Source: Minisyncoccota bacterium (GTDB lineage: Bacteria > Patescibacteriota > Minisyncoccia > Phycocordibacterales > UBA5272). Taken from it: a stretch of 56,559 bases of DNA. The notes under the pieces were generated by a model that had not been told where the DNA came from, ran no database searches, and worked only from the letters and a program-made list of their open reading frames with translations. Location of the stretch: NCBI GenBank assembly GCA_018062965.1, contig JAGORG010000006.1, forward strand, positions 1-56,559, in the 5' to 3' direction. Within the stretch, counting starts at the first letter, position 1, and each line of letters begins with the position of its first letter. Shown piece after piece: positions 1-50,677 of this stretch. A program made the position numbers and the translations under genes.

Positions 1-8
1 AGTACACA
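1..8 (+). repeat. 3' end of a further copy of the 87-bp B repeat (window starts inside it)
   Basis: agtacaca matches the terminal ...cagtacaca of the B copy at 2390-2469. Confidence 0.4.
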
Positions 9-61
9 GATTAATTTAGGTATATAAATAAAGGAATTTTAGACGTACCAATCCGTATGAT

Positions 62-75
62 GGAACTGATATACT
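62..75 (+). promoter_or_regulatory. cassette promoter motif GGAACTGATATACT (extended -10 TGnTATACT)
   Basis: The same motif recurs at 977-990, 1558-1572, 1987-2001, 2703-2717 and 3911-3928. The TATACT box ends 9 nt before ATG 85. Confidence 0.6.
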
Positions 76-84
76 TATAGATAT

Positions 85-849
85 ATGGGAAAATTCGACC
101 CAAAGATATATGAACGAGATGTGTACGAAGAACCTATCTACTCTTCTTGGCTGAAATATACCAACCAGAGAGACTTGCTAGAACTGTTTTTAACAGAAAA
201 CTTTCATAAGTGGTGCAAGACAAACCCTATTTCAATTCTGGAACTAGGATGTGGTTCAGGTTCAGCCGCCCAGAGGATATTTTCTATTCTAGAAAAAAAC
301 AAAATCTCATATTCCTACCTTGGTGTTGACCCATATCAGGACCAGTTGAATAGATGGCCACAGGCTCTAGTAGAAAAAAGTAATATAACTCTTATGCAGG
401 GTACTGTTGAAAGTTTTATACCAAAACAGAAATTCGACCTTATTCTGATTATTCATGCTTTGTATTATGTTGATGATTTACCTGAAACGCTTATTAAAGT
501 CAACTCACTAGGAACGACAAAGCTCATCGTTCACCATGGGGAATTTGGTATCAATGAAGTGCAAGAAAAATTTCGTTCGTATGTAAAATCGGGCCCAAAT
601 ATCATTAGTACTTACCACGATGTGAAGCGTGTTCTTGATTCGGTGAATATACCGTATGAGCTTAATGTCGTTGATACGAAAGTAGACATACGGCCGTGTC
701 ATGATTTGAAAAACAAGGATGGCACTAATCTTATAAAGTTTTTTCTCGAGCACTCCGAGTTACCAGAAGAAACCCTTACACAAGTCAGTGCTTTCTTAAA
801 AAATAAAGGGGATATCATTAAGCAAGATGATGGATACTTCTTTATCTAA
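85..849 (+). CDS. class I SAM-dependent methyltransferase
   Basis: 254-aa ORF with motif I ILELGCGSGSAA and a later FDLILIIHALYY motif-II-like segment. Confidence 0.75.
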   Translation: MGKFDPKIYERDVYEEPIYSSWLKYTNQRDLLELFLTENFHKWCKTNPISILELGCGSGSAAQRIFSILEKNKISYSYLGVDPYQDQLNRWPQALVEKSNITLMQGTVESFIPKQKFDLILIIHALYYVDDLPETLIKVNSLGTTKLIVHHGEFGINEVQEKFRSYVKSGPNIISTYHDVKRVLDSVNIPYELNVVDTKVDIRPCHDLKNKDGTNLIKFFLEHSELPEETLTQVSAFLKNKGDIIKQDDGYFFI

Positions 850-863
850 ACTTAGGTAATACA

Positions 864-999
864 GTTCTAATCCTCTCCACCACCGCACACCAATCAATAT
901 AAACTAAAAATCCCCTTGTGAAAGAGGGGGGGTAGTTCCAATCTCTGTCTATCCAATCGAGAAAATTGGTGAGGTTGGAACTGCTATACTATTTGATAT
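864..999 (+). repeat. A-type intergenic module copy 1 (GTTCTAATCC core, hairpin, promoter)
   Basis: Contains GTTCTAATCCTCTCCACCACCGCACACCAAT, then the hairpin aaaaatcccctt/aagagggg, then GGAACTGCTATACT. Alignable with 1872-2010 and 3826-3931. Confidence 0.7.
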
Positions 1000-1392
1000 A
1001 TGAAAACAATTTTAGTAGATGCTGTAGATGCATTTGTGATTGAAGGTGAGGGTATTTATAATCCAATGTATGATTTGCTTGAATCGTATCCAAATGTAAA
1101 GATTATTTTGACTGGAGCGAATGATTCACAAATTGAACAATTTGGTCTTACGAATATGCCGTACGAGTTATTTACACTCAAGCATAATCCTGAAAAAACA
1201 GATCCTTCATACTACCAAAAAATGTTAGAGCAGTTTAATCTAAGTAAAGATGATGTAATATATTTTGAACATAATCCAAAAGCAGTAGAGAGTGCTCGGT
1301 CTGTAGGAATAAATACTTATCACTATGATTTCGAAAAGAAAGATTTAGTTCAGCTCAAAAAGTTTTTAGATGACAATATTAATACAGTGTAA
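1000..1392 (+). CDS. HAD-superfamily hydrolase-like protein
   Basis: 130-aa ORF with N-terminal ILVDAVD (DxD-like) and C-terminal VIYFEHNPKAVESARSVGI resembling HAD motifs. Confidence 0.55.
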   Translation: MKTILVDAVDAFVIEGEGIYNPMYDLLESYPNVKIILTGANDSQIEQFGLTNMPYELFTLKHNPEKTDPSYYQKMLEQFNLSKDDVIYFEHNPKAVESARSVGINTYHYDFEKKDLVQLKKFLDDNINTV

Positions 1393-1420
1393 ACACGAGT
1401 AGGGTAATTATCTTTAGCTC

Positions 1421-1507
1421 ATCTGAGTTCTAATCCCGCACCTAAAGGTATTGCTAAAACATAGTCGCAAAGCTCCTTGTTTTGAGGGAATCTACGATAG
1501 TACACCA
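1421..1507 (+). repeat. B repeat copy 1 (87 bp)
   Basis: atctgaGTTCTAATCCCGCACCTAAAGG...GGGAATCTACGATAGTACACCA. At most 2 mismatches to the copies at 3701-3787 and 4827-4913. Confidence 0.9.
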
Positions 1508-1557
1508 CGAATTAGAGTAATAAAATCAAGGCATACTTACTGCAACCTTTAGAGACT

Positions 1558-1572
1558 TAGAACTGATATACT
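1558..1572 (+). promoter_or_regulatory. cassette promoter motif TAGAACTGATATACT
   Basis: Shared motif. ATG 1576 lies 3 nt and ATG 1582 lies 9 nt after the TATACT box. Confidence 0.55.
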
Positions 1573-1575
1573 AAA

Positions 1576-1872
1576 ATGATTATGTCATTAGAAATGCCAA
1601 ACCAGAATCCGTTATCAGTGAAGGAAAAGTTAATAGCAAAAGCTGACAAGGAAGGATTTGTTTCAATTGGAGATTTTGCAACTCAAGAATTAAAAAGACA
1701 ATCAAAAAGTATAGCTGCATTTTTGGATGGCGATGAAGGAATACAACCAGAAATAAATTTTGGGGAAGGAATAAGATTTAAAGGATCTTCAGGAAATTAT
1801 TCAGATATGAAAGTGCATGTTGACGATCTGGAGGAATTTATAAAACGTGTGCGTGATTATTACGGAAACTAG
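1576..1872 (+). CDS. hypothetical protein (cassette gene)
   Basis: 98-aa ORF. Its stop codon TAG overlaps the next GTTCTAATCC core. The start may be the second ATG at 1582. Confidence 0.6.
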   Translation: MIMSLEMPNQNPLSVKEKLIAKADKEGFVSIGDFATQELKRQSKSIAAFLDGDEGIQPEINFGEGIRFKGSSGNYSDMKVHVDDLEEFIKRVRDYYGN

Positions 1873-2010
1873 TTCTAATCCTCTCCACCACAGCACACCA
1901 ATTCATAAATACTAAAAATCTCCTTATGAAAGAGGGGATTTTTAGTTCTAACATTTTGGTACCCTTTAGCGAATTACAGGGGAGGTTTGAACTGATATAC
2001 TGTTTAGTAT
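1872..2010 (+). repeat. A-type intergenic module copy 2
   Basis: Contains GTTCTAATCCTCTCCACCACAGCACACCAAT, the hairpin aaaaatctcctt-atga-aagaggggattttt, and TTGAACTGATATACT. Confidence 0.7.
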
Positions 2011-2379
2011 ATGAAAATGGAAAATACGGCTGAGTAAAATTTACCAAATTTAGAAAGTGTTAAACTAGAAGCTTTTTTGAATAGCAAGGAAGTCAGTACT
2101 ATTTTAGCTGAAGGATCTGGAAATATAGATGGTGAATCTATAAGAAAAAAGCTCATTGAGTTGTTTAAAGGTTCAGAAGAAATTGGATTTCACAAAAAAC
2201 TTGTACGTAGCTGTGGTTCTTTAAAGGAATGGTTAATGAGTGTTGATCCAGAAAATAAAAGTACAGTTGATGAGTTTTGGTTAGAGATAGCATCACTTGC
2301 TACAACAAATGCCTTAGAAGATGACAGAGTTCCAGAAGGTTACAGTCCTAATGTAATTGAGCTAAAGAATTTTCGTTGA
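2011..2379 (+). pseudogene. cassette gene interrupted by an in-frame TAA (codon 9); the remainder is the 100-aa ORF from TTG 2077
   Basis: ATG 2011 sits the usual 9 nt after TATACT. It is in frame with ORF 2077-2379, with a single TAA at 2035-2037. Confidence 0.45.
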
Positions 2380-2389
2380 AGCAATTATG

Positions 2390-2469
2390 GTTCTAATCCC
2401 GCACCTAAAGGTATTGCTAAAACATAGTCGCAAAGCTCCTTGTTTTGAGGGAATCTACGACAGTACACA
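2390..2469 (+). repeat. B repeat copy 2 (lacks the first 6 nt; ends CACAC)
   Basis: Identical to the other copies across GTTCTAATCCCGCACC...CGACAGTACAC. Confidence 0.9.
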
Positions 2470-2481
2470 CAGTATTTTGAG

Positions 2482-2501
2482 AAAACCCCGAAAGGGGTTT
2501 T
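2482..2501. terminator. hairpin aaaacccc-gaaa-ggggtttt (usable on either strand)
   Basis: Perfect 8-bp stem flanked by A and T runs. Confidence 0.6.
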
Positions 2502-2504
2502 CTT

Positions 2505-2638
2505 GTGTGCCTATCGAGATTCGAACCGAGAGGAAAAACGGGTTTAGTTTTCCCGTGGCGGAAGAATGGAAACCGAAGGATTTCCAAACCGAGAGTGAGC
2601 GAAGTGAACGAAGGTTGTAAGATTCTCGATAGGCACAC
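2505..2638. other. 134-nt element closed by a 15-bp perfect inverted repeat; tRNA-like fragments; possible structured RNA
   Basis: gtgtgcctatcgaga (2505-2519) pairs with tctcgataggcacac (2624-2638). Internal small hairpins cggg..cccg and ggaaa..tttcc. Contains TTCGAA(C/T)C T-loop-like strings. Confidence 0.5.
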
Positions 2639-2702
2639 CAACCGAGAACATCAATAAAGTCAACGGTTATTTTCTATACTCTATTGAGAAAAAGTTTAAG
2701 GT

Positions 2703-2717
2703 AGGAACTGGTATACT
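2703..2717 (+). promoter_or_regulatory. cassette promoter motif AGGAACTGGTATACT
   Basis: Shared motif, 21 nt upstream of ATG 2739. Confidence 0.55.
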
Positions 2718-2738
2718 TAATAATATAACAATATATTT

Positions 2739-3686
2739 ATGAACAAAGCACCAGGAATGTCGGTAGGTTCTCAAGAAACGATTTCATTGTTTGAGCAGGA
2801 AAAAATGCTTAAAGGAATTACAGATCTCGTGGCAGAAATAAAGGTCCACAATGATAATCATGGTGTTGGCGCCATGTTGGGGAAGGCTCTCGCAGGAGTA
2901 ATAGTTCATGATATAAAACCACAAGAAGGAGAAGAGAACAAATCTACTGAGGATGTGGTCAGAGGTGTTCAGTCAGAAATAGAGGCTGGTGGTCATGCGG
3001 GTCTAGTTGCACTCAAGTCTCGCAACGAATCAACCCTAAAAGAATTCGGACTCTCTTTAGACCATCAACGTTCACACTACGACCCCAATGAATCTCTGGA
3101 TACTATTGTGTTTAAAGTGGTTGACGTCAAAAAGTTTATAAGTAGTATTGAGATGTTAAAACATGCTATTAAGGCAGAATCTATCGATGCTGTTTTTAAG
3201 ACAGTACTTGAAAATCTTTTAGAGCAAGTATATTTTACAAACCAAGAAGATGTATTAGACGCTGGAGGAAATATTAATTCCAATCTCACAGATATTTCAA
3301 AAGCATTTCATGACGCCCTCCCTGGTATGGATCTTATAAGGTTGGACACCTATGCAAAATTTAAAGGAGAGGGTCGCCTTAAAAATTATATTGCGGTAGA
3401 AAAAGAAAACCTTTGGGCGGAACCAGGGAAAAATTTCGGCCCCGCAGATTGGGTCAGAGATATTTCACCTGAAGGTCTTGAGAAAAAGTGGGATCATGCG
3501 CTGGGTGTGCTTAGTGTCCAGGATCTTGAGAAAGAGCGAGGAGTTGCTCCTGAACTACGAGAACATTTACTCAAATGTATTACTTCAGCGTTTGAAACAA
3601 GTAAATCTTCTCCATGGGCGGCAGAGTTCGAACCAATCTTAATAAAATACACTCAAAAGATTGTAGGTAATAACTCACTTAACTAA
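2739..3686 (+). CDS. hypothetical protein (cassette gene)
   Basis: 315-aa ORF with no motif I recognise, bounded by B copies. Confidence 0.7.
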   Translation: MNKAPGMSVGSQETISLFEQEKMLKGITDLVAEIKVHNDNHGVGAMLGKALAGVIVHDIKPQEGEENKSTEDVVRGVQSEIEAGGHAGLVALKSRNESTLKEFGLSLDHQRSHYDPNESLDTIVFKVVDVKKFISSIEMLKHAIKAESIDAVFKTVLENLLEQVYFTNQEDVLDAGGNINSNLTDISKAFHDALPGMDLIRLDTYAKFKGEGRLKNYIAVEKENLWAEPGKNFGPADWVRDISPEGLEKKWDHALGVLSVQDLEKERGVAPELREHLLKCITSAFETSKSSPWAAEFEPILIKYTQKIVGNNSLN

Positions 3687-3700
3687 ACACTCTTTTGTTC

Positions 3701-3787
3701 ATCTGAGTTCTAATCCCGCACCTAAAGGTATTGCTAAAACATAGTCGCAAAGCTCCTTGTTTTGAGGGAATCTACGACGGTACACCA
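3701..3787 (+). repeat. B repeat copy 3 (87 bp)
   Basis: Differs from copy 1 only within cgaCGg versus cgaTAg. Confidence 0.9.
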
Positions 3788-3825
3788 CTTCACAAAGATT
3801 ACTTTGCTTCGCGGTGTACGCATCA

Positions 3826-3931
3826 ATCAATAATAACTAAAAATCTCCTTTTAAACGGGGGATTTTTAGTTCTCACATTTAGTAACCCAATCGGGAATTA
3901 CATGTAAGGTTGGAACTGGTATCATACTCTG
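3826..3931 (+). repeat. A-type module copy 3 (lacks the GTTCTAATCC head)
   Basis: atcaatcaataataactaaaaatctcc...gggggatttttagttctcacattt...ggttggaactggtatcatact aligns with A1 and A2. Confidence 0.6.
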
Positions 3932-4783
3932 ATGACTTCATGGATGTTTTATGCAGTTTTTGGAATGTTGCAGAGCGGACTTTTAATGGCTCTCTTTAAA
4001 GTTCCAGCAGCAAAACAAATCAATAAGTACAGTTTGTCTGCTTGGGCATATTTATTTGCAATGCTTATTGCTGGCTATGTGTTACGTGGATATATTGTAT
4101 TTGATATACGGGCAATCATTTTTTCATTTGTATGGGGAACTAGTTTTGCAATCCTTAGTATTACCCAGATGCATGTACTTCATAAACATGATACTAGTGG
4201 CGTATTTCCTTTCACAAGTTTAGCTTCAAATGTTTTTGTTGTTATTGGTGGGGTGTTTTTCTTGAATAATTCTATCTCACTACTTCAGTGGGTTGCTATC
4301 ATGTTGTCAGTTTTTTTATTTATCGGAGCACACTGGGGCAGTAAGAAGACTTTCATTATTGAGATATTACCCTCATTCATGTTTATTGCACTGCTTTCTA
4401 CATTTAATAAGTTTGTACAAAATGCCGGAGCTAATCATGTAGAGGTTAATAATTTTATTTTTTGGCAACTCGTATTTGCTTTTATCTCATCACTTGTAAT
4501 GCTTTTCTTTGTAAAAAAGCAGATTTCACTTAATGACCTTGTTCATAGACATCTTATTGGTTGGGCATTTCTTATTGGGGTTCTTCAATTTGGAAACACG
4601 TATGCAGTTGTAAAAGCTCTTTCACTCGGTCCAATTTCCCTCGTATTTATTGTGCTTGGGCTGTATACATTTTTTACTACGATATTTGCCTCACTACTTT
4701 TTAAAGAAAAAATAACTACTAAAAAAATTGTTTTTATCACCTTATCATTTTTGGTTGTGCTTCTTATTAAGTTGGGTAACTAA
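3932..4783 (+). CDS. multi-pass membrane protein, DMT/EamA-like transporter (tentative)
   Basis: 283-aa ORF, roughly ten hydrophobic segments in two halves. Confidence 0.5.
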   Translation: MTSWMFYAVFGMLQSGLLMALFKVPAAKQINKYSLSAWAYLFAMLIAGYVLRGYIVFDIRAIIFSFVWGTSFAILSITQMHVLHKHDTSGVFPFTSLASNVFVVIGGVFFLNNSISLLQWVAIMLSVFLFIGAHWGSKKTFIIEILPSFMFIALLSTFNKFVQNAGANHVEVNNFIFWQLVFAFISSLVMLFFVKKQISLNDLVHRHLIGWAFLIGVLQFGNTYAVVKALSLGPISLVFIVLGLYTFFTTIFASLLFKEKITTKKIVFITLSFLVVLLIKLGN

Positions 4784-4826
4784 ATAATTTAATCTAAAAA
4801 CTAGTAGGGTGAATTGTTTTCTACCT

Positions 4827-4913
4827 ATCTGAGTTCTAATCCCGCACCTAAAGGTATTGCTAAAACATAGTCGCAAAGCTCCTTGTTTTGAGGGAATCTA
4901 CGACAGTACACCA
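4827..4913 (+). repeat. B repeat copy 4 (87 bp)
   Basis: Near-identical to copies 1 and 3. Its 3' end CACCA abuts the methyltransferase fragment. Confidence 0.9.
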
Positions 4914-5255
4914 AAAGATTCTTTTGATTTTATTTACGGCAAGTCTATAGCTTTTGTTCCACGTGGAGATATTGAAGTCTTTTTACAACGATTGAGAGAG
5001 TCTTTAAAACAAAACGGTTTACTATGTGCAGTCTTTTCTGGAGAAGGTGACACATGGCGACCATATGCTTACTCTAGAGAAGAACTCGAAGAGCTTTTTG
5101 TAAAAAGTGGTTTTCTGCTAACTAACTATAAAGCTATACAAGAAGCAAGAGATGCTTTAGATGGCAAGGTGGGGACAGCGCACGAGCTTCTTATTCTTGC
5201 ACGAAGAGATGATACAGACTCCCTAATATTTACGTTTCCTGAAGAAGAAAAGTAA
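4914..5255 (+). pseudogene. 3' fragment of a SAM-dependent methyltransferase gene (motif II onward)
   Basis: Translation DSFDFIYGKSIAFVPRGDIEVFLQRLRESLKQNGLL... resembles a class I MTase from motif II. No motif I is present. The apparent N-terminus of ORF 4857-5255 is read from the B repeat. Confidence 0.55.
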
Positions 5256-5319
5256 CTGGCGTTCTTTTAAAAGAATACGTTTATCGAATCTCTGTTTTTA
5301 TTGGTGATATACTTATACT

Positions 5320-5949
5320 ATGAAAATAGCGCTATATGTTGGTGTAGTTATTGCAATTATTATTGTGTGGTCACTATACGGGTACTTTACTTCTCGTGTA
5401 GAACAAACACCATACACGGTAACCAAAAAAACTGATACGTATGAAATACGGCAGTACCCAAGTCATTTAGTTGCTCAGACAACTGTTAGTGGTTCATACA
5501 AGGATTCGCTCAACGAGGGCTTTAGTATTGTGGCGGGGTATATCTTTGGTGCCAATATCCAGAAGCAAAAAATAGCAATGACATCTCCTGTAGTTGCAAC
5601 TGACGAAGGATCAGAAAAAATAGCAATGACTGCACCGGTTCTTGCAACGGATAATCAGGGTAGTACAACAATAGCGTTCGGTATGCCTCAGTCTTATACA
5701 GAGGAAACTCTTCCAACACCAACGGACTCACGGGTACGTGTTGTGCGTGTTCCTGAGACAACATTCGCTGTTATAAGTTCTACTGGATATAGAACTGATG
5801 CTCGCCTCAAGCGCATGGAAACCACATTACGAGAAGCTCTTGTCCAAGACGGCGTTCAAGCAAATGGAAAAGTTTCATACGCTGGATATAATGCACCAGG
5901 TACACCACCATGGATGACACGTAATGAAATCCTCATTGAACTCAAGTAG
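5320..5949 (+). CDS. SOUL heme-binding family protein with N-terminal membrane anchor
   Basis: YEIRQYP...GFSIVAGYIFGANIQKQKIAMTSPV...IAMTAPV pattern typical of the SOUL/HEBP family. Confidence 0.65.
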   Translation: MKIALYVGVVIAIIIVWSLYGYFTSRVEQTPYTVTKKTDTYEIRQYPSHLVAQTTVSGSYKDSLNEGFSIVAGYIFGANIQKQKIAMTSPVVATDEGSEKIAMTAPVLATDNQGSTTIAFGMPQSYTEETLPTPTDSRVRVVRVPETTFAVISSTGYRTDARLKRMETTLREALVQDGVQANGKVSYAGYNAPGTPPWMTRNEILIELK

Positions 5950-5954
5950 TCTAT

Positions 5955-6353
5955 ATGGTTTCATCTTCTCAAATCCCACACTTTCATCTGAAAGATCAAC
6001 CAAAACTCGTTAAAGAGGGAGTGTTTCTGTTGGATGGAGAAGTGTGGAGCACGCAAAAAAGAATTGCGCGTATCTACGGACGAAGTATTCCAACTATCAA
6101 TGACCACCTCAAAAAAATTTATCGAGAAAAAGAACTTATCAAATCTGCAAGTGAGATAGCTGTGATGGTTACACAAAAAGAGGGCAAGAAAGAAGTTACA
6201 CGAAAGATTTTTGTATACAATACAGACGCTGTGATAGCAATTGGTTTCCGCGTAACAGGTGAGTGGGGGAAGGAGTTTCGTGTATGGGCTCGGGATATTG
6301 TTCGAGGAAGTTACGATCCAAAAGAACAGATACGTCATCTCATCGCACGCTAG
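5955..6353 (+). CDS. RhuM-family protein, short (N-terminal region only)
   Basis: VWSTQKRIARIYGRSIPTINDHLKKIY...YNTDAVIAIGFRV...FRVWA resembles the RhuM N-terminal domain. Confidence 0.55.
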   Translation: MVSSSQIPHFHLKDQPKLVKEGVFLLDGEVWSTQKRIARIYGRSIPTINDHLKKIYREKELIKSASEIAVMVTQKEGKKEVTRKIFVYNTDAVIAIGFRVTGEWGKEFRVWARDIVRGSYDPKEQIRHLIAR

Positions 6354-12246: not shown

Positions 12247-12792
12247 ATGGCTAAACAAGAATTTACAGGAGAGCGTCACTGGTACGCAATCCATACATAC
12301 AGTGGATACGAAAACGCGGTGCAGCGTAACTTGAAGCAGCGTATCGAGTCTCTTGGTATGGAAAACAAAATATTTGCCGTTGTTGTTCCAGTTGAAAAGA
12401 AGATTAAAATAAAAGGAACTAAGCGCGTTGAGGTTGAAGAAAAGGTATACCCTGGATACGTACTGGTTGATATGATCGTGGATGACAACAGTTGGTACGT
12501 TGTACGTAACACACCTCGCGTGACTGGATTCGTTGGAGCGGGGACTACACCAGTTCCACTTACTCAAAAAGAAATCGATTTCCTCTTCTCTCGTATGAAC
12601 ACAGGAGAAGTAGAACACGACATCACTATGGATGTAGGGGAGCTTGTATCTATTGTGGATGGTCCGTTTAAGGAATTTGAAGGAAAAGTATCTGAAGTCG
12701 ACAAAGCTCGTGGAAAACTCAAAGTTCTCGTCAATATGTTTGGGCGAGAGACTCCTGTTGAGCTAGACTTCCTTCAAGTTAAAAAGATATAA
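12247..12792 (+). CDS. nusG: transcription termination/antitermination factor NusG
   Basis: HWYAIHTYSGYENAV... NGN domain plus a C-terminal KOW (VSIVDGPFKEFEGKV). Confidence 0.9.
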   Translation: MAKQEFTGERHWYAIHTYSGYENAVQRNLKQRIESLGMENKIFAVVVPVEKKIKIKGTKRVEVEEKVYPGYVLVDMIVDDNSWYVVRNTPRVTGFVGAGTTPVPLTQKEIDFLFSRMNTGEVEHDITMDVGELVSIVDGPFKEFEGKVSEVDKARGKLKVLVNMFGRETPVELDFLQVKKI

Positions 12793-14663: not shown

Positions 14664-15194
14664 ATGTTTGAAGGTAAAAAGGTTATCACTATTGGAGCTT
14701 TTTCAAAAGATTTTGCTGTGTATAGCAAAAACGGTGGTATTCCGTGGAGGATCCCCGAAGAGCAGCAACACTTCAAAGCAAAAACAATGGGACACGCTGT
14801 GATTATGGGGCGAAAGTCCTGGGAGTCACTTCCTTCCAAAATGCGTCCGCTTCCTGGACGAGAGAATGTTGTTATTACAAGGAGTAAAGATTTTGAAGCC
14901 GATGGTGCTCGAGTTGTGACCTCGCTTGAAGAAGCAATTCATACAGCTGATTCAGAAACTGTGTTTGTGACTGGCGGTCGCAACTTCTGGATTCCGGCGA
15001 TGGATTTTGCTGATGAGGCATGGATTACGGTTGTTCACATACAACAACCTGAAACTGAAGAAGTGCTTCTTCATGCAACGGAGATGCTTCACCTCCAGTT
15101 GTACTGGCCACAGTTTGAACTGTATCAAGTCGATAGAAAACAACCTACTGAGTCAACTCCAGGTTACGATGTTCAACATTGGATACGGCAGTAA
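14664..15194 (+). CDS. folA: dihydrofolate reductase
   Basis: GGIPWRIPEEQQHFKAKTMGHAVIMGRKSWESLP...LPGRENVVITRS. SD AGGAGA lies 5 nt upstream. Confidence 0.85.
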   Translation: MFEGKKVITIGAFSKDFAVYSKNGGIPWRIPEEQQHFKAKTMGHAVIMGRKSWESLPSKMRPLPGRENVVITRSKDFEADGARVVTSLEEAIHTADSETVFVTGGRNFWIPAMDFADEAWITVVHIQQPETEEVLLHATEMLHLQLYWPQFELYQVDRKQPTESTPGYDVQHWIRQ

Positions 15195-15196
15195 AT

Positions 15197-15227
15197 AAAA
15201 ACCCCGCGTAATGCGGGGTTGTTTTTT
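15197..15227. terminator. bidirectional terminator between convergent folA and thyA
   Basis: aaaaaccccgc-gtaat-gcggggtt-gtttttt. Confidence 0.8.
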
Positions 15228-16131
15228 ACTTGGCGACATCACCTTTGATGTGTGGATGGGCTTCATAGCCCTCAAACACAAAGTCCTCAAATACGAAATC
15301 CTCAATCCTTTTTCGTGGATTCAACTTAAACGTAGGAAGTGGATACGCTCTACGTGACAGTTGTAGCTCACATTGGCGAAAGTGGTTACTGTAAATGTGG
15401 CAATCGCCACCTGTCCAAATGAAGTCCCCAACTTCGAAGTCACACTGTTGTGCAACGATGTGCGTAAGCATTGCATAGCTTGCGATGTTGAATGGAACAC
15501 CCAAGAACCAGTCAGCGCTACGTTGATACAGCTTACAAGAAAGTCTACCTCCTGCAACATAGAACTGAAAGAATGCGTGACAGGGCATGAGGGACATTTT
15601 GTCGAGTTGTGCAACATTCCATGCGCTTATAAGCATTCTTCGTGAATCAGGGTTATTGCGGAGAATCTCAAGAACGCAAGCTAGCTGGTCGATAGTGTTT
15701 CCGTCATAGGTGGGCCATGCCCGCCACTGTTCGCCGTACACTGGGCCAAGCTCTCCACCTTTTTGTGCCCATTCGTCCCAAATGGTTACGCCGCGTTCCT
15801 TGAGCCAGTTGTTATTTGTCATACCGTTCATTATCCAGATGAGTTCGTGGGTGATCGCTTTTGTGTTGAGTTTTTTTGTTGTTATCAAAGGAAAGCCTTT
15901 TCGCAGGTCAAACCTCATCTGCAAACCAAACTTACTGATTGTCCCTGTGCCAGTACGATCCGTCTTGGGTGTACCGTTTGAGTAGATGTCGGCCATGCAG
16001 TCTTCGTAGGGACCTTGACCTGGGACAAAGCCAAGTTCATCAAGTGACTTCCGTGACGCAAATGCAGCAAGAGCATTTGTGCGTGCACGTTCAAATTTTT
16101 CCTGGGTGACAAGATTATGTTCGTAGTCCAT
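15226..16131 (-). CDS. thyA: thymidylate synthase (ThyA type)
   Basis: [36 protein letters not shown] 16131 is preceded by GGAGG. Confidence 0.9.
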
Positions 16132-16237
16132 GAAAACCTCCAAAGGTTACTGAAAAGATCTAAAGGATAACCTTGTTCACTGTACATGTTTTTTGTGGAC
16201 ATAACAAATATTGACAGTATGTTTACCTGTTGTAAAT

Positions 16238-16263
16238 AAAAATCGGCACCTGGGTGCCGATTT
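16238..16263 (-). terminator. terminator downstream of the second DHFR-like gene
   Basis: aaatcggcacc-cag-gtgccgattttt on the minus strand. Confidence 0.7.
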
Positions 16264-16276
16264 GGAAAAGTCTGTA

Positions 16277-16903
16277 TTACGCTTGCTTTGGTTTGAGGTA
16301 GTTACGAAACTCGAGCTGCACCTCGGCGGTACCCCACATATCTGTCATAGGAACACGCTCGCACTGCATGCCTGCAAATGTTTCATCACGAAGCAGCTCC
16401 GGAAGTCGACGAACCAAACCCTTTGTATGTGGACTCATAGCAACTGAGTCACACATCACGACGGTGATAAAAGCTGCATTGCAGAGTCCGCTCTTTAACC
16501 CTTCAAGCCAGACGGTCTCACCGCCAAACAGAAAGATATGCCCACAGTCTTTGAATTGCAGCGCTTGAGTAACAGCCTGGTGGATGTTCTGGGCAATGGC
16601 GGTACGGTTTTCACCATCTCGCCCTAGGTTAACGTCATGTTCCGTAAGTGTTTGAGACACAACGATAGTACGTCGTCCCGGGAGTGATCGTTTTCCGATT
16701 GAGTCAAATGTTCCACGTCCCATGATCAGTACGTTTTTTGTATCTGGAGCAAAGAGTGTGTTCCTTGTAATCAACACGAGTCGACCCATATCGAGCTTTA
16801 TAGCGCTTCGCCCTGTTTCGTTTGACCAGGGAAGATAGCTGCCGATACCAAAGACGCCATTTTGGTCAATGCCAGCAATGGGTGCAATAAGTCTGTCAGA
16901 CAT
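16277..16903 (-). CDS. second dihydrofolate reductase-like protein
   Basis: IAPIAGIDQNGVFG...LPW...VLIMGRGTFDSIGKRSLPGRRTIVVS is a DHFR-fold pattern. SD AAGGA upstream. Confidence 0.65.
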   Translation of the reverse strand: MSDRLIAPIAGIDQNGVFGIGSYLPWSNETGRSAIKLDMGRLVLITRNTLFAPDTKNVLIMGRGTFDSIGKRSLPGRRTIVVSQTLTEHDVNLGRDGENRTAIAQNIHQAVTQALQFKDCGHIFLFGGETVWLEGLKSGLCNAAFITVVMCDSVAMSPHTKGLVRRLPELLRDETFAGMQCERVPMTDMWGTAEVQLEFRNYLKPKQA

Positions 16904-19800: not shown

Positions 19801-19978
19801 TAGCGTCGACGGGACTAATCACCCCTGAGCTTCGGGAAGAAAACCACATTGGCTAGTAGAACCCACAAATAAGGTCTGTGTATACAGATAAAACAAGGTG
19901 GTACCACGGGAATCAGCAGAAACTCGTCCTTGAGAAGCAATTCGTATGAATTGTTTTCCAAGGACGAGTTTTTATTTT
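19801..19978 (+). promoter_or_regulatory. T-box leader upstream of ileS
   Basis: T-box core aaGGTGGTACCaCGgg at 19895-19910. Terminator aactcgtccttg...caaggacgagtt plus a T-run. Candidate AUC(A) specifier at 19818-19821. Confidence 0.7.
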
Positions 19979-19996
19979 TATAACCAACATATATTC

Positions 19997-22900
19997 ATGG
20001 CAGAACAACCTAAACAAAAAACAATCAACGAAAAAGAACTCGAAACTCTCGCCTCATGGCAAGAGAACGAGATTTTTGAAAAGTCAGTTGCAACCCCAGC
20101 AGGCGAATCGCCTCGTGGACAGTTTTCGTTTTATGATGGTCCACCATTTGCAACAGGTATGCCACACCATGGGACGCTCATGGCAGGTACGGTGAAGGAT
20201 GTTATCCCTCGTTATCAAACCATGAAAGGTAACAGTGTTCGTCGTGTGTGGGGGTGGGACTGCCATGGTCTGCCAATTGAAAACCTCATCGAGAAAAAAC
20301 TTGGACTTCAGTCAAAGAAAGACATCGAAGAGTATGGAATAGACAAGTTCAATAAAGACGCATTTGATAGCGTGCTTCAATACGAAGCAGAATGGAAGAA
20401 AGTGATTCCTCGATTGGGTAGATTTGTCGACATGGAACATCCGTACAAGACGATGGATGCAACATACACTGAAAGTATTTGGTGGGCATGGAAACAGCTC
20501 ATGGAAAAAGGTCTTGCATATGAAGGTCACAAGATGATGCATATTTGTCCGAGATGTGAGACACCGCTTGCTCAGTCAGAAGTTGGGCTTGAGTATCATG
20601 ACGTTACTGACTTGTCTGTTACGGCGGAGTTTGAGCTCGTAGATGAGCCTGGTACGTTTGTGCTTGCATGGACAACAACACCGTGGACGCTTCCTGGAAA
20701 TACTGCGCTTGCCGTAAATAAGACAATTGCGTATGTAAAAGTGAAAAGTACTTTCGAAGACAAAACTAATTATTTTATTCTCGCAAAAAGTAAGGTAGAA
20801 GAATATTTTAAAGACAGTGCATTGATTGAAGTTGTGGAAGAATTTACTGGCGTTGCACTGATTGGAAAATCATATAAACCAGTTTTCTCATATTTCAAAA
20901 ATACAGAGATTGAAAACAAAGAAAATATCTGGAAAATTTGGCATGCAGATTTTATAACTGAAGATGCAGGTACTGGTATCGCGCACGAAGCACCAGCCTT
21001 TGGTGCAGAAGACATGGAACTCGCCAAGGCAAATAATATCCCAGTGATTAAGCATGTAAAGATGGATGGAACATTTATCGACGTGGTGACTGACTTTGCT
21101 GGCATGAAAGTAAAAGTAAAAGATGATACACAGTCTGCTGACATTGAAATCATCAAATACCTCGCACACAACGGAACTCTATTTGAAAAACATAAAATTA
21201 TTCACTCATATCCACTTTGCTGGCGATGTAAAACACCGCTTCTTAACTACGCAACAAGTAGCTGGTTCGTTGATGTTCCAAAGATGAAAGAAAAGCTTCT
21301 TTCAGAAAATCAGAGTATCGGGTGGACACCAGAACATATTCGCGATGGGCGATTTGGTAAATGGCTAGAAGGTGCTCGCGAGTGGGCTGTTTCCCGTACA
21401 CGGTACTGGGGCGCACCGCTTCCTGTGTGGAAGAACGCAGACGGAAGCGAACTAAAAGTGATTGGATCTCTCAAGGAGTTGGCTCATAATAGACTTCCTA
21501 AAAATACATACTATGTGATGCGACATGGTCAGGCACAGAGTAATGTACGGGGGATTATTGAAGTAGGAGACGATATAACAAACACACTTACCGACGAAGG
21601 AAAAGCTCACATAGAAGAACAATCTCAAGCTCTGCGAGAACATCATATCGATATGATTGTCGCTTCTCCTGTACTTCGTTCTATGCAAACTGCGGAAATC
21701 GTGAGCCGTGTTCTCGGTGGTGTTCCAGTCGTGTGCGATGATCGTTTACGAGAAAACAACGTTGGAGTATTTAACGGAAAAACAATTGACGAGTATCTAG
21801 CTTCAGAAGGTTCAACTGACTTTCTTCGCATGAAGCATCGCCCAGAAGGAGGGGAGACGCATGAAGAAATACAGAATCGCATGATGGCAGTGTTTATGGA
21901 TTGCGAAAAGGAACATGTTGGCAAAACCATTCTGTTCATTAGTCACGGTGGACCGCTTCGTATGTTAATTGCGGGCACTGCTCTTAAGACAGAGGAAGAA
22001 ATTCTTGCTGATGAAATGGAAGAGCATACACAAATGTATTTGAAAAATGGAGAGTTTCAAAAACTTGATGAAGTTTACTTGGTGCCACGAGATGAAACAG
22101 GTGCTGTTAATCTGCATCGTCCATATATTGACGATGTGACATTTGTAGACAGTAAAGGTGAAACAATGAAGCGTATACCAGATGTGTTTGATTGTTGGTT
22201 TGAATCAGGGTCTATGCCATTTGCTTCCCTTCATTATCCGTTTGAGAACAAAGACATATTTGATAAAAATTATCCAGCAGATTTCATTGCAGAGAGTATG
22301 GATCAAACACGAGGGTGGTTCTACTCACTCATTAATCTTGGTGTTGGGCTCTTTGATAAAGCGCCATACAAACATGTTATCTGTAACGGACTTATTAACG
22401 GAGCTGATGGTCAAAAGATTTCAAAGAGTCTTGGAAATTACACAGACCCACTTCTTTTGGTTGAAAAGTTTGGCGCGGACGCTTTCCGTTACTACATGAT
22501 GTCGAGTCCTGTTATCAAGGGAGAAAGTGTTAACTTCAAAGATACTGAACTCGAAGACGTATACAAGAAACTCATTATGCGTCTTGAAAATGTTTTGTCA
22601 TTATATGAAATGAACAAACCAGCCAGTGTGTCGCGAAGTGCTGCATCAGAAGATGTTCTTGATACATGGATTATTAGCCGTGTACATGAAGTAGTCAAGG
22701 CTACGACGGATGGGTACGAACAGTACAAGCTTGATGAAGCGGTACGACCGGTTGATCAGTTCGTGGATGATCTTTCTGTGTGGTATGTTCGTCGTGCTCG
22801 TTCACGTCTTAAGGGGGACGAAGGGGAGGATGTGCGCAATCGTACATACGAAACGCTCTCATATGTACTACATACATTTGCTCGTACGATTGCTCCTGTT

Positions 22901-23449
22901 ATGCCGTTTATAGCAGAGCGTATATACACAATCGTTGCAGGTGAAAAAGAATCTGTGCATCTTGAGTCATGGCCTGGGGTGGGTGTAACCGATGGAGATG
23001 TGATAGCGCGCATGAAAACAGCGCGAGAGGTTGTATCAAGTGCTCTTATGAAAAGAACTGAGAGTAAAATCGCTGTTAGACAACCACTTGCAACACTTAC
23101 TATCACTGAAGATTTACCAGAAAGCTATCTCTCTATTATCCAAGAAGAAGTGAACGTAAAAGCTGTTACTGTTGGAGCTGAGCTATCGCTTGATACAACG
23201 ATAACAGAAGACCTTCGTATTGAAGGGGATATTCGAAACCTTATGCGCGCAGTACAAGACAAGAGAAAAGAGATGAATCTTTCCCCAAAAGATGGTATCT
23301 CTCTTACCCTTCAAACACCGTACGACCTTGGAGATGTTTCAGAACTTTCTCGTGTATGTAACATACAAACTATTTCACGCAGTGATACTTCACAAGAAAC
23401 AGAAGTTGCTTTGTCACAAGGCTCTGCCTCGTTTACTATTACGCTCTAA
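19997..23449 (+). CDS. ileS: isoleucine--tRNA ligase (type 2) with an inserted histidine-phosphatase domain
   Basis: GPPFATGMPHHGT and KISKS motifs plus a CP1 editing region. About 200 extra aa at roughly 21490-22110 carry the RHG and SHGG motifs. Confidence 0.9.
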   Translation: MAEQPKQKTINEKELETLASWQENEIFEKSVATPAGESPRGQFSFYDGPPFATGMPHHGTLMAGTVKDVIPRYQTMKGNSVRRVWGWDCHGLPIENLIEKKLGLQSKKDIEEYGIDKFNKDAFDSVLQYEAEWKKVIPRLGRFVDMEHPYKTMDATYTESIWWAWKQLMEKGLAYEGHKMMHICPRCETPLAQSEVGLEYHDVTDLSVTAEFELVDEPGTFVLAWTTTPWTLPGNTALAVNKTIAYVKVKSTFEDKTNYFILAKSKVEEYFKDSALIEVVEEFTGVALIGKSYKPVFSYFKNTEIENKENIWKIWHADFITEDAGTGIAHEAPAFGAEDMELAKANNIPVIKHVKMDGTFIDVVTDFAGMKVKVKDDTQSADIEIIKYLAHNGTLFEKHKIIHSYPLCWRCKTPLLNYATSSWFVDVPKMKEKLLSENQSIGWTPEHIRDGRFGKWLEGAREWAVSRTRYWGAPLPVWKNADGSELKVIGSLKELAHNRLPKNTYYVMRHGQAQSNVRGIIEVGDDITNTLTDEGKAHIEEQSQALREHHIDMIVASPVLRSMQTAEIVSRVLGGVPVVCDDRLRENNVGVFNGKTIDEYLASEGSTDFLRMKHRPEGGETHEEIQNRMMAVFMDCEKEHVGKTILFISHGGPLRMLIAGTALKTEEEILADEMEEHTQMYLKNGEFQKLDEVYLVPRDETGAVNLHRPYIDDVTFVDSKGETMKRIPDVFDCWFESGSMPFASLHYPFENKDIFDKNYPADFIAESMDQTRGWFYSLINLGVGLFDKAPYKHVICNGLINGADGQKISKSLGNYTDPLLLVEKFGADAFRYYMMSSPVIKGESVNFKDTELEDVYKKLIMRLENVLSLYEMNKPASVSRSAASEDVLDTWIISRVHEVVKATTDGYEQYKLDEAVRPVDQFVDDLSVWYVRRARSRLKGDEGEDVRNRTYETLSYVLHTFARTIAPVMPFIAERIYTIVAGEKESVHLESWPGVGVTDGDVIARMKTAREVVSSALMKRTESKIAVRQPLATLTITEDLPESYLSIIQEEVNVKAVTVGAELSLDTTITEDLRIEGDIRNLMRAVQDKRKEMNLSPKDGISLTLQTPYDLGDVSELSRVCNIQTISRSDTSQETEVALSQGSASFTITL

Positions 23450-38627: not shown

Positions 38628-38633
38628 CTTGTG

Positions 38634-39024
38634 TGGAGATGGGCGGAATTGAACCGCCGTGTATACCAGAACGATGTATGAATCTACAGTGTTTAGTGTG
38701 CTTCGTTGTAATCATCTAGCATAGAAAGCAAACGAAAACGATAGATGATGTGCATGAATTGTTTCGGTGAAAAGTTCATGCAAGCTTTTCACCTACATCT
38801 CCTGTTATTATGCCCTAGCTCTTTCCGGAGATGCGCAAGAGAAGGACACCTGGTCGGCGTTATTACGCGAACGCAGGAACGAGTCCGTTTGCCATATATG
38901 GTGAACGGATCGCCGTTGCAGATTTGTTTGCAACATGGGTGGCAGAATGGTTACGAGCAATTCTGCCGGTCTCGACACAGCACATACAATCATTGTCGAT
39001 ATATCAAAGCCAAAGATCATCCCC
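38634..39024 (-). ncRNA. ssrA: tmRNA (SsrA)
   Basis: 5' GGGGATG pairs with 3' CATCTCC, including the G3-U pair. T-arm GGCGGTTCAATTCCGCC. PK1 ggcagaat/attctgcc. Tag frame GCA AAC ... GCG TTC GCG TAA TAA. Immediately downstream of smpB. Confidence 0.9.
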
Positions 39025-39025
39025 A

Positions 39026-39460
39026 TTATTCTCGAAGACGCATTTCACGTCGAGAGATTTCTTGTTTAACCTTTTCTCGTTTGTCATGCTTCTGTAGTTT
39101 TTTACAAAGCGCAATGTCGCACTTAACAAGGTTGTTTTTAATATACAATGAAATAGGGTGTACTGTCAACCCTCGAACCTCCTCTTGATGAAGTAATTCA
39201 GCAATTTCTTTTTTGTTCAGAAGTAATCTGCGAGTTCGGTGTTCATCATACGATGCTGGAGTATTTGCGGCTTGGTATGGTGGTATGTATGAACCAACCA
39301 AAAACGCTTCTCCGCCACGAATAATCACTTTACTGCCTTCAAGAGAGCCAAGTTTTTGTCGCAATGCTTTTACTTCATGTCCGACTAGTTCAATACCAGC
39401 GGTGTATGTGTCCATGACTTCATATACCAGGCGGAGTTTTTTGTTTTCAACCAGTTTCAT
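39026..39460 (-). CDS. smpB: SsrA-binding protein SmpB
   Basis: YEVMDTYTAGIELVGHEVKALR...GSYIPPY...RTRRLLLNKKEI. Confidence 0.9.
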   Translation of the reverse strand: MKLVENKKLRLVYEVMDTYTAGIELVGHEVKALRQKLGSLEGSKVIIRGGEAFLVGSYIPPYQAANTPASYDEHRTRRLLLNKKEIAELLHQEEVRGLTVHPISLYIKNNLVKCDIALCKKLQKHDKREKVKQEISRREMRLRE

Positions 39461-41719: not shown

Positions 41720-41804
41720 TGTTCTAGATCCGTCACCATTGGCGGGTCCACTACTAATCCTACGCCTCAAATAAAATCTTGTAAAGATATCTTATAAACG
41801 TTTG

Positions 41805-41877
41805 TGCATCCACCTGGACTCGAACCAGGGACCAGTCGTGTATAAGACGACGGCTCTACCAACTGAGCTATGGATGC
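41805..41877 (-). tRNA. tRNA-Ile with anticodon UAU; CCA not encoded
   Basis: Manual cloverleaf: acceptor GCATCCA/TGGATGC, D arm GCTC/GAGC, anticodon stem GTCGT/ACGAC with loop CTTATAC, T arm CCTGG-TTCGAGT-CCAGG. Confidence 0.85.
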
Positions 41878-44091: not shown

Positions 44092-44124
44092 AAAAAGCTG
44101 GCCGCCGTAGGCGGCCAGCTTTTT
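44092..44124 (-). terminator. terminator between the small membrane-protein gene and recG
   Basis: aaaaagctggccgcc-(gtag/ctac)-ggcggccagcttttt. Confidence 0.8.
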
Positions 44125-44491: not shown

Positions 44492-44541
44492 GTATGTAGT
44501 ATATCAGGATACATGTCACGACAACAAACTACCCAACCAAG

Positions 44542-45717: not shown

Positions 45718-45758
45718 CAGCTAAACATGAAGCAGGGTCAAAATGATTGCTTACAAGT

Positions 45759-47015: not shown

Positions 47016-47030
47016 ATTCTGCGGTTGCTG

Positions 47031-48095: not shown

Positions 48096-48166
48096 AGATG
48101 TATCTACCTACCATTATTTAAGCAGTGTATCATGCGTAAAACTAAGATGGTTACCTTGTGCACACT

Positions 48167-48883: not shown

Positions 48884-48885
48884 AA

Positions 48886-50666: not shown

Positions 50667-50677
50667 ATTATAATTCA

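Follow-up and report, generated by a model that had tools for sequence, protein, structure and literature searches.

What is the row of small, unrelated genes that lies between repeats at one end of a contig from a Minisyncoccota bacterium (GCA_018062965.1, JAGORG010000006.1), and how could its members have been brought together? The window, meaning the whole stretch of DNA that we analysed, is 56,559 nucleotides (nt) long, and the locus in question occupies its positions 1 to 5,255. A preliminary description, made from the letters alone, had likened it to integron-like or recombinase-associated cassette arrays, in which unrelated genes have a promoter each. The genes are indeed unrelated, point in one direction and have individual promoters. 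We read the locus as the distal part of a gene-cassette array that belongs to a platform at the 3′ end of a tRNA-His gene and is altered by a site-specific mechanism, and we give these three statements jointly a probability of roughly 55%. The host is a member of the candidate phyla radiation, and we take it to be almost certainly a Saccharibacterium. For comparison we used ten loci from contigs encoding the methyltransferase of the first cassette in identical form (L001 to L010), as well as further loci numbered from L011.

The array is marked by the decamer GTTCTAATCC, which occurs six times, at exactly the positions given before (864, 1427, 1872, 2390, 3707 and 4833), always on the + strand. 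No copy is present outside positions 1-4842 in the 56,559 bases; shuffled sequences gave an expectation of 0.13 copies, and none of 100 shuffles reached six. By reading all intergenic regions, we found that the decamer opens a longer element, designated C3, whose minimal form is GTTCTAATCCCGTCTACGACAG-YACAC (Y = C/T; 27 nt). C3 is located at the 3′ end of a cassette and begins within a few tens of bases of the stop codon. In 50 of 59 distinct copies, an open reading frame (ORF) on the same strand ends between 65 nt before and 7 nt after the start of the core. Among 54 distinct copies of the short form, the 27-nt core was 70-99% conserved, and conservation dropped right after ACAC to approximately 0.7 (C, A) and approximately 0.5 beyond. 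The decamer itself had been taken as the boundary of each unit. The functional boundary is instead the point after YACAC, 17 nt past the end of the decamer in the short form and 69 nt past it in the long form. Many cassettes have nothing in common except C3 and the −10 box.

Two kinds of spacer, named A and B, had been distinguished earlier; we found that they are long and variant forms of the one cassette-end element. In the B repeat, C3 is extended by 52 nt inserted between CCCG and TCTACGA. The four near-identical copies of B (1427-1505, 2390-2468, 3707-3785 and 4833-4911) were borne out, with 97.5-100% identity over 79-82 nt in BLAST comparisons. A partial fifth copy claimed at position 1 was not, as only the last 7-8 nt (AGTACAC) of some cassette end are present there. 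Because this tip is common to all end types, the remnant is not callable as B. The A modules are located at 864-990 and 1872-2001, and their 3′ part alone occurs at 3814-3925. The first 27 nt of an A module are a variant C3, GTTCTAATCCTCTCCACCACCGCACAC. The remainder aligns over its full length to the sequence that natively follows tRNA-His in L009 and L014, and the promoter GGTTGGAACTGnTATACT closes the module after the terminator. The native tRNA-His flank reads CACACCA, followed by ATCAATAAA(A/T)AC, a terminator hairpin and then GGTTGGAACTGGTATAC.

The same gene can carry either form of C3. For the 316/296-aa gene, this is the long form in L001 and the short one in L002. The window gene for a 130-aa HAD-like protein (HAD130) has the long form, and its paralogue HAD127, with 96.7% DNA identity, has the short form. 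The insert itself (1438-1489 in the window and at the same place in the other three B copies; 14100-14156 in L001) is 52-57 nt long and is an indel in its own right; it invariably lies between CCCG and TCTACGA, is present or absent after near-identical genes, and occurs as two tandem units in L013. An optional upstream module, U, with the pattern ATArTGTAAAC (ACAGTGTAAAC)...GAGTAGGG...CATCTGA, frequently contains the stop codon. It accompanies approximately 40% of the copies across lineages of the candidate phyla radiation (CPR).

The repeats are restricted to the locus, as the preliminary description had asked to be checked. No copy was detected in the window from 5 to 56.5 kb. In a survey of other genomes, described below, the core was confined to one contig in 18 of 19 genomes and occurred on two contigs in the remaining one. 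A dispersed scatter, as of repetitive extragenic palindromes or miniature inverted-repeat transposable elements, was not observed; the exact core occurred in 20 stretches from 19 genomes.

Each of the six genes is preceded by the promoter motif GGAACTGnTATACT, in agreement with the earlier claim: exactly at 62, 977 and 2704, with one mismatch at 1559 and 1988, and with two mismatches at 3912. The window contains seven matches in total against 1.3 expected, and the seventh is a two-mismatch copy on the minus strand (12544-12557), outside the array. The part TGnTATACT without the GGAAC prefix is a general promoter box of this genome, which also precedes ordinary genes at 5305, 24015, 34147, 38584 and 44498, among others, so that only the GGAAC prefix is specific to the array. 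The extended −10 box TGnTATACT lies 8-12 nt ahead of the ATG, and the mRNA would therefore be essentially leaderless. The 5′ spacer of a cassette is frequently a copy of the native region downstream of tRNA-His, including its terminator.

The comparison loci revealed where such arrays begin, an anchor that the preliminary description could not see. The methyltransferase cassette (MT) starts exactly at the 3′ end of tRNA-His(GTG) in L001, L002, L004, L006 and L009. ARAGORN placed tRNA-His upstream of cassettes on the same strand in L012, L014, L019, L024, L028 and L029, and L031 is a seventh further CPR locus of this kind, in which the tRNA was found with Rfam and assigned to His by its sequence. 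In L036, the tRNA ahead of the core is identical in sequence to the tRNA-His of L012. Any tRNA-His gene in the fetched stretches heads an array and points in the same direction as the cassettes.

The point of joining could be read from occupied and unoccupied genes. Uninserted tRNA-His genes read ...GGCACACCA or ...CACACCA and continue into the native ATCAATAAA flank, and those with an insert read ...GGCACAC followed directly by the insert. Comparison of CACACCA with CACAC places the join after C74 and before C75 of the encoded CCA, which leaves the body of the tRNA unchanged. Five of six other tRNA genes in the loci and the window do not encode CCA, and the loss of the final CA from tRNA-His should thus be harmless. 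C3 can be aligned to the 3′ end of tRNA-His (GTTCnAATCyCG...CACACCA), and we describe it from this alignment as resembling the tRNA segment from the T-loop to CCA without being a copy, as it is 5 nt longer and differs in the acceptor part. The 3′ ends of tRNA-His vary between lineages, and C3 is nearly invariant. We also considered transfer-messenger RNA (tmRNA) or another tRNA 3′ end as the source of the repeat. This was rejected, as the tmRNA end in the window (38631-39024) and the tRNAs of the loci are unlike C3.

Several loci have additional structures around the tRNA. L009 contains two tRNA-His genes in opposite orientation, at 1650-1724 (−) and 3796-3868 (+), with array-type modules outward of each, which suggests that it holds two divergent arrays. 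At 760-830 in L024, right after the tRNA-His end ...GCCACAC, there is a perfect palindrome of approximately 60 nt with the CACAC tip and a second T-loop fragment placed head to head. The stem of the terminator in L038 and L027 is likewise lengthened and pairs with CACACCA. Such a structure could have arisen as a side product when the DNA was joined.

The joins between cassettes are precise too. The MT cassette, whose left end is AGATTAATTT..., is preceded by any of three different sequences, namely tRNA-His, the end of a Cu-oxidase cassette and the end of a Bro-N cassette, and the identity of its flank begins after CACAC. Conversely, one Cu-oxidase cassette end has six different followers (L007, L011, L017, L018/L033, L039 and L030), which diverge exactly after ACAC; AGATTAATTT, TGACAAAAC and CGCTAACG are examples. 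The Cu-oxidase cassettes of L007 and L033 are 99.9% identical over 1530 nt, up to the same ACAC. Differences among the preceding end elements confine the left breakpoint to CTACGACAGTACAC, and the junction between the 98-aa and 339-aa cassettes in L002 narrows it to AG-YACAC.

Clustering of the units between successive end elements revealed that both the content and the order of cassettes vary among contigs that hold identical cassettes, as the earlier polymorphism check had anticipated. The clusters are 6 (MT), 0 (HAD), 1 (98 aa), 2 (Fic-like, 359 aa), 3 (316/296 aa), 4 (aminoglycoside phosphotransferase (APH)-like, 339 aa) and 5 (Cu-oxidase). L001, L004 and L006 have the order tRNA-His, 6, 0, 1, 2, 3, 4, and L002 has tRNA-His, 6, 0, 1, 4, 2, 3. 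L007 and L008 have a cassette of a reverse transcriptase (RT) with a Bro-N partner followed by 2, 5, 6, 0. The window begins with a preceding unit that could not be assigned, continues with 6, 0, 1 and ends with three cassettes seen nowhere else. In L066, clusters 1, 2 and 3 are followed directly by a chromosomal gene and cassette 4 is missing, so that, from one contig to another, cassette 4 is missing, last in the row or in its interior. The copies of cassette 4 in L001 and L002 show 100% identity, which begins approximately 10 nt past the CACAC junction and lasts to the end of the cassette. L068 has an extra HAD127 unit placed exactly at CACAC between MT and HAD130; it shares its assembly with L055, a contig identical to the window.

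These junctions recurred independently. The exact junction of cassettes 1 and 4 in L002 was found again in L067, which was obtained independently from another run with another assembler. At 27-82 nt, the end repeats fall below the suggested k-mer of 119, a value read from the names of several contigs, and the modules are unlike each other. Together with the recurrence of junctions across samples, this makes an assembly artefact unlikely.

From these observations we propose that DNA would be broken and rejoined within the 7 nt AG-YACAC whenever a cassette is gained, lost or relocated. In the tRNA gene, the cut would fall between C74 and C75 of the encoded CCA, and at resident cassettes it would fall at the tip of C3. 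The tRNA would be kept intact, and each insertion would regenerate a target. The reaction would be a conservative site-specific recombination, performed in trans by a recombinase encoded elsewhere in the genome, and, by analogy with integrons, it would probably act on cassettes that are circular or newly arriving. As a secondary process, the modules of approximately 135 nt may undergo homologous recombination or gene conversion with each other, which would scramble the flanks. The anatomy of the arrays, their anchoring at tRNA-His, the precise and recurrent junctions, the polymorphism among strains and the conservation across lineages are observed. That site-specific exchange at AG-YACAC by an unlinked enzyme is the primary mechanism is our preferred reading, at slightly better than even odds. 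We favour it because the joins are exact without homology in the flanks, C3 is conserved across classes, the CCA anchor is invariant and many cassettes share only 27 nt.

Several results weigh against site-specific exchange and are gathered here. The first concern the enzyme. Pfam annotation of every sizeable ORF in the window detected no recombinase or transposase, in keeping with the preliminary description and with a phmmer search. That search (phmmer --max with XerD, IntI1 and gamma-delta resolvase query sequences entered by hand) covered approximately 280 kb of loci (L001-L040) and the window, and its best E-value was 0.37. No recombinase appeared in the precomputed Pfam lists for L001-L010, which reach 10 kb upstream of tRNA-His, so that the suggested upstream extension did not disclose the enzyme; the recombinase association originally considered was not found beside the array. 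In L011-L040, Pfam on 127 ORFs gave no recombinase among the 25 commonest families listed, and no dedicated search for DDE, HUH or IS110 enzymes was made. The second set concerns the cassettes. Circular cassette contigs, suggested earlier as a check for circular junctions, were searched for and none was found. In three contexts, cassette 2 has an ORF with 100% identity but differing 5′ and U modules, and some breakpoints lie inside conserved modules and not at ACAC. The A module simply repeats the flank native to tRNA-His, which would also permit RecA-type exchange. Third, the folds of B are no better than those of shuffled sequences (z = 0.35 and −0.33), and C3 has no supported covariation, no dyad symmetry and no hairpin; it is thus unlike the sites of known tyrosine and serine recombinases and unlike attC. 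Finally, all data are metagenome assemblies.

Two neighbouring proteins were examined as candidates and rejected. In L001 and L002, the 10 kb upstream contain rluD, rplS, tRNA-Leu and the gene of a 201-aa protein beside tRNA-His; this protein has a signal peptide and matches no family. The reverse transcriptase of L007 and L008 was considered as the engine of the system, and it is a defence-type enzyme with a Bro-N/PDC-S13 partner, which makes it cargo. In L007 (329-2225) the two genes form one cassette with a variant end element, and the RT matches PADLOC RT at 1e-54 and is UG17-like.

The results on modules bear directly on the main rival, namely that competent cells exchange cassettes by RecA-dependent double crossover or unequal crossing-over between conserved modules, with no dedicated recombinase at all. 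This would account for the absence of a recombinase near any array, for the breakpoints of cassette 2 within modules, and for the use of the A module, a repeated copy of the native flank of approximately 135 nt, as a region of homology. The tandem HAD127 and HAD130 units carry identical modules, and natural competence of Saccharibacteria is reported (PMC10187176 / PMC10633639). Many junctions, however, are exact yet have no homology to the right of ACAC, and in many cassettes the 27-nt C3 is the only stretch shared. With C3 and the −10 box alone in common, such cassettes have too little sequence for efficient homologous recombination. A length of 27 nt is at or under that usually required for RecA exchange. 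Homology-driven exchange also leaves unexplained why the 27-mer is conserved more strictly than tRNA-His 3′ ends across CPR classes and why the array always starts inside CCA. We consider it unlikely as the primary process, while taking it more seriously than the other rivals.

The location at a tRNA 3′ end raises a different explanation, that the locus is a decayed island of tRNA-targeting integrative elements, tycheposon- or prophage-like, which lost their integrases and most of their genes and left single genes between partial-tRNA scars. Tycheposons of Prochlorococcus form comparable islands (10.1101/2020.12.28.424599): these lie by specific tRNA genes in streamlined genomes, earlier insertions are displaced outward by later ones, the units are separated by tRNA-like repeats, the cargo is adaptive or defensive, and integration is at the 3′ part of the tRNA. 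The last of these is also what we observed. The tRNA-like direct repeats, the inverted and direct tRNA-end fragments and palindromes of some loci, and the low GC content fit the same idea. Tycheposons, however, are kb-scale elements that each encode a tyrosine recombinase and in many cases replication functions, and the repeats found with them truly duplicate part of the target tRNA (10.1101/2020.12.28.424599). The units here are single genes of 0.4-1.5 kb with no recombinase found, and the repeat is a conserved sequence that differs from the local tRNA end, with a join within CCA. Neither an integrase nor a fragment of one was detected in the approximately 280 kb of 40 loci; the units consistently comprise one ORF each, all in the same direction, with a promoter ahead and an end element no more than tens of bases from the stop codon; C3 aligns with the tRNA-His 3′ end but differs from it in length and in the acceptor part; and identical cassettes move one at a time. 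We regard a decayed island as quite improbable. Phage or plasmid origin was rejected separately, as the exact core had no match in IMG/VR viral contigs; a loose pattern matched only by coincidence in coding sequences, and the X-element motif (see below) and the tRNA-His 3′ end had no viral matches.

Returning to exchange at the C3 tip, the system that it most resembles is the integron. Both have a fixed chromosomal site followed by a one-directional array of mostly single-gene cassettes, a conserved recombination-site-like end on each cassette with the stop codon often within or beside it, ORF-less cassettes, accessory cargo and an array GC content below that of the surroundings. Cassette content and order differ among close strains with precise boundaries, as in integrons. 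The differences are substantial. Integrons have intI beside the first cassette, and here no such gene was detected, either next to the array or elsewhere in the sequences searched. Cassettes attach at the CCA end of tRNA-His and not at an attI next to intI. The end element is 27 nt long, sequence-conserved and non-palindromic, whereas attC is a structure-conserved hairpin with R″ (RYYYAAC) and R′ (GTTRRRY) boxes. Cassettes here have their own promoter and often a terminator, and there is no Pc, the common promoter from which promoterless integron cassettes are expressed. The hosts, finally, are CPR bacteria.

A classical integron, or a cluster of attC sites lacking an integrase (CALIN), with divergent attC sites would explain the co-oriented single-ORF cassettes and the repeat after each. 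It is contradicted by the lack of any IntI found and of R″ and R′ boxes, by a GTTCTAA core that departs from GTTRRRY and lies at the ORF-proximal and not the distal end of the repeat, by the missing hairpin, and by the promoter of each cassette. The preliminary description had itself noted that the repeats do not fit attC, and this was borne out; B has no hairpin, no IntI was found and the cassettes are not promoterless. We consider this explanation hardly credible.

Other known systems share fewer features. Modules called pdif, and integrative mobile elements exploiting Xer recombination (IMEX), are moved without a recombinase of their own at short (approximately 28 bp) conserved sites by an enzyme presumably encoded elsewhere by the host, and this is similar to our proposal. 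C3 can be parsed as 11-6-11, but when its arms GTTCTAATCCC and GACAGTACACC are compared by eye as inverted repeats, only 6 of 11 positions agree, and the junction lies at AGYACAC, not at the putative centre GTCTAC. C3 sites are all direct repeats, whereas pdif sites alternate in orientation. A location of the array at the replication terminus or dif site was rejected because there is no GC-skew switch: the skew stays positive along the entire window and, in L001, to either side of the array. Minimal mobile elements of Neisseria consist of one alternative cassette between two conserved genes. They share with our loci the presence of different genes at one site between conserved flanks, the lack of a dedicated recombinase and competent hosts. 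They differ from the multi-cassette array, the dedicated 27-nt end element, the precise joins and the tRNA anchor described here. There is a substantial chance that this gene-cassette platform would, once its enzyme is found, make a new system.

Some units in the arrays contain no ORF. The window has one such X unit at 2469-2638. After ...TACAC it has a terminator-like hairpin, followed by a 136-nt element ending in CA. Its closing stem has 15 perfect base pairs, GTGTGCCTATCGAGA/TCTCGATAGGCACAC, and reproduces the acceptor and T-stem of tRNA-His. The fold has a predicted energy of −49.8 kcal/mol, with z = −4.1 on the + strand and −5.5 on the − strand. Related X units follow tRNA-His or C3 in L012, L014, L015, L016, L024, L027, L031 and L037. 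Homologues of the window unit were found in L037, L011 and L036, and related classes in L012, L014, L024 and L027. Their coordinates include 820-918 in L012, 4210-4308 in L014, 1094-1190 in L027 and 3663-3759 in L036, and the elements are 100-135 nt long. The related unit of L036 follows a tRNA-Leu, and its stem copies the end of that tRNA. X elements have several interior classes. In one of these, GAACCGCGG...GGTTTCGAG...GAGAGGCAAATCC, comparison of six sequences revealed compensatory changes at 9 of the 25 predicted pairs. They matched no Rfam family. Like cassettes, X units begin after CACAC and finish with ...CACAC, and their ends are true copies of the tRNA end. By analogy, the folded stem recalls attC and might mimic a double-stranded attachment site. 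X elements may be an undescribed non-coding RNA of CPR bacteria or a folded recombination site.

These folds bring in the last rival, in which the repeats would mainly be RNA elements, that is 3′ untranslated region (3′-UTR) or tRNA-like signals for processing or stability (for example RNase P/Z punctuation), and the array would have grown by duplication. C3, with its T-loop-like GTTCTAATCC and its terminal ...ACCA, does lie in the 3′ UTR ahead of a terminator, and the A-module fold contains G-U pairs; the tRNA-minihelix stem and compensatory changes of X point in the same direction. For C3 and B, however, there is no significant fold or covariation and no Rfam match, and B as a structured RNA or attC-like hairpin was rejected on these grounds. 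Rfam 15 on window positions 1-5400 gave nothing at E ≤ 10 except one chance snoRNA match, and on six related loci only tRNAs scored significantly. An RNA function leaves unexplained the precise DNA junctions, the reordering between strains and the anchoring at CCA. We consider this rival improbable as the main explanation, although a little less so than a decayed island; an RNA role could coexist with the DNA role.

We then return to the cassette platform and its distribution. An exact scan with one genome per species found the 22-mer core GTTCTAATCCNNTCTACGACAG in 20 stretches of 19 genomes, against a chance expectation of approximately one match by our own estimate from the database size. 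The hosts are labelled Saccharibacteria, Nomurabacteria, Taylorbacteria, Paceibacterota, Gracilibacteria and, in one case, an unclassified 'bacterium', and 18 of the 19 were counted as CPR. The one non-CPR label is that of a Gammaproteobacteria contig with the same Cu-oxidase cassette, which was probably mis-binned. Metagenome contigs contributed 10 more loci with the core. Cargo in the arrays includes GNAT acetyltransferases, cupins, HIT, GH15, GH130, Ddl, NADAR, TspO, Fic, HAD and Cu-oxidases, as well as methyltransferases, APH-like kinases and the RT with its Bro-N partner, and is accessory or defence-like. Full-text searches of the literature gave no description of such arrays in CPR bacteria.

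Tentatively, and at somewhat less than even odds, we go one step further and suggest that these loci represent an unrecognised CPR-wide system of gene capture. It would use the CCA end of tRNA-His as attachment site, a 27-nt tRNA-like tag on each self-expressed cassette, and an unlinked and possibly new recombinase or nuclease. X units would be either ORF-less cassettes that imitate the attachment site by their folded stem, in analogy to attC, or RNAs with a part in the reaction. Such a system would be an integron analogue of independent origin in ultra-small symbiotic bacteria.

The array in the window can now be described unit by unit, all on the + strand. Positions 1-8 (AGTACAC followed by AG) contain the tip of the end element of an upstream cassette, and the array thus reaches beyond position 1. 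The junction is like that after the Cu-oxidase cassette in L007, where GACAGTACAC is joined to AGATTAATTT; in L001, the identical right-hand sequence follows tRNA-His at ...GGCACAC. Window position 4 aligns to position 9920 of L001, with 99.4% identity across 2 kb. The MT cassette (9-849) consists of a 5′ spacer, the promoter GGAACTGATATACT (62-75) and the ORF of a class I S-adenosylmethionine-dependent methyltransferase (85-849; Pfam Methyltransf_23/12/11). The identical protein is encoded on 23 contigs in differing contexts. A variant C3, GTTCTAATCCTCTCCACCACCGCACAC (864-890), follows; the same variant type occurs in the Nomurabacteria locus L013 and in L011. The right part of the A module (891-999), recognised by alignment to the native regions downstream of tRNA-His in L009 and L014, consists of CAATCAATATAAAC, a terminator-like hairpin (approximately 906-933) and GGTTGGAACTGCTATACT (973-990). 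It leads to the ORF of the 130-aa HAD-like hydrolase (1000-1392; Pfam HAD_2). Module U (1384-1426), found across CPR lineages, holds the stop codon of this ORF. The long C3, identified with a repeat finder and BLAST, then occupies 1427-1505 as GTTCTAATCCCG, the 52-nt insert and TCTACGAYAGTACAC.

The 98-aa cassette (1506-1898) has a spacer, a promoter (1559-1572), an ORF (1576-1872) whose TAG stop overlaps the C3 core, and a variant C3 (1872-1898). A relative with 75% DNA identity is present in L025 of another Saccharibacteria species. The fourth gene lies in a cassette (1899-2468) with an A-type 5′ module, a promoter (1988-2001), an ORF (2011-2379) and a long C3 (2390-2468). An in-frame TAA at codon 9, just past the promoter and ATG, indicates that this gene was probably inactivated recently. 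The ORF-less unit comes next, with its hairpin at 2476-2504 and the X element at 2505-2642, and ends with ...GATAGGCACAC before CA. The 315-aa cassette (2639-3785) has a spacer, a promoter (2704-2717), an ORF without a family match (2739-3686) and a long C3 (3707-3785). Metagenome contigs with this gene are short, identical to the window and end at the flanking B copies. The last cassette (3786-4911) starts from the degenerate remnant of an end element (...GCGGTGTACGC), after which comes an A-type module (3814-3925) with a promoter (3912-3925). It continues with the ORF of an EamA/DMT transporter (3932-4783; Pfam EamA), a U-like stretch and a long C3 (4833-4911). Pfam thus agreed with the methyltransferase, HAD-like and DMT-like transporter calls of the preliminary description, and the other three ORFs have no family.

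At its distal end (4912-5255), the array closes with an orphan reading frame that abuts the last ...TACAC before CA and has no promoter of its own. No homologue, PDB match or Pfam family was found for it, and the idea that ORF 4857-5255 is a truncated methyltransferase was rejected on the same empty searches. The normal chromosome resumes at the promoter TGATATACT (5305). The GC content is 35-38% in the first 6 kb and 41-45% across most of the remaining window, and 35% in the array compared with 42-47% in its flanks; this low GC content and the accessory or defence-like cargo give the array a foreign character. Just past the array, a short ORF (5955-6353), whose match to the RhuM virulence-protein family is limited to positions 1-50 of that family, is likely a gene fragment.

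Elsewhere in the window, two dihydrofolate reductase (DHFR)-family genes (14664-15194, +; 16277-16903, −) lie on either side of a thymidylate synthase gene within 14664-16903, with dUTPase and deaminase genes just upstream. Positions 19946-23449 encode an isoleucyl-tRNA synthetase-like protein of 1167 aa with a His_Phos_1 domain inserted at residues 523-678, which is an unusual fusion. A tmRNA gene (38631-39460, −; Rfam, 87 bits), which ARAGORN did not call, is located directly downstream of smpB. A tRNA-Ile with anticodon TAT is encoded at 41804-41877 (−). This tRNA is uncommon in bacteria, most of which read AUA with a lysidine-modified CAT tRNA. A second stretch of low GC content (33-37%) at 44100-54800 contains large ORFs without a Pfam family (391, 418, 354, 487 and 385 aa), followed by genes for a PQQ-propeller/phosphoribosyltransferase protein and a YcaO protein, and may be another accessory region.

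CPR bacteria (Patescibacteria) account for a large part of bacterial diversity. Their genomes are tiny, they rely on hosts, and their acquisition and exchange of accessory and defence genes are poorly understood. If the platform at tRNA-His operates as proposed, from Saccharibacteria to Gracilibacteria, it would be a main route of gene flux in the radiation and a second, independently evolved answer to the problem that integrons solve. The 27-mer would then serve as a sequence tag for harvesting a CPR 'cassette metagenome'. As Saccharibacteria can now be transformed, the mechanism is directly testable, and the site could serve genetic tools as a natural landing pad.

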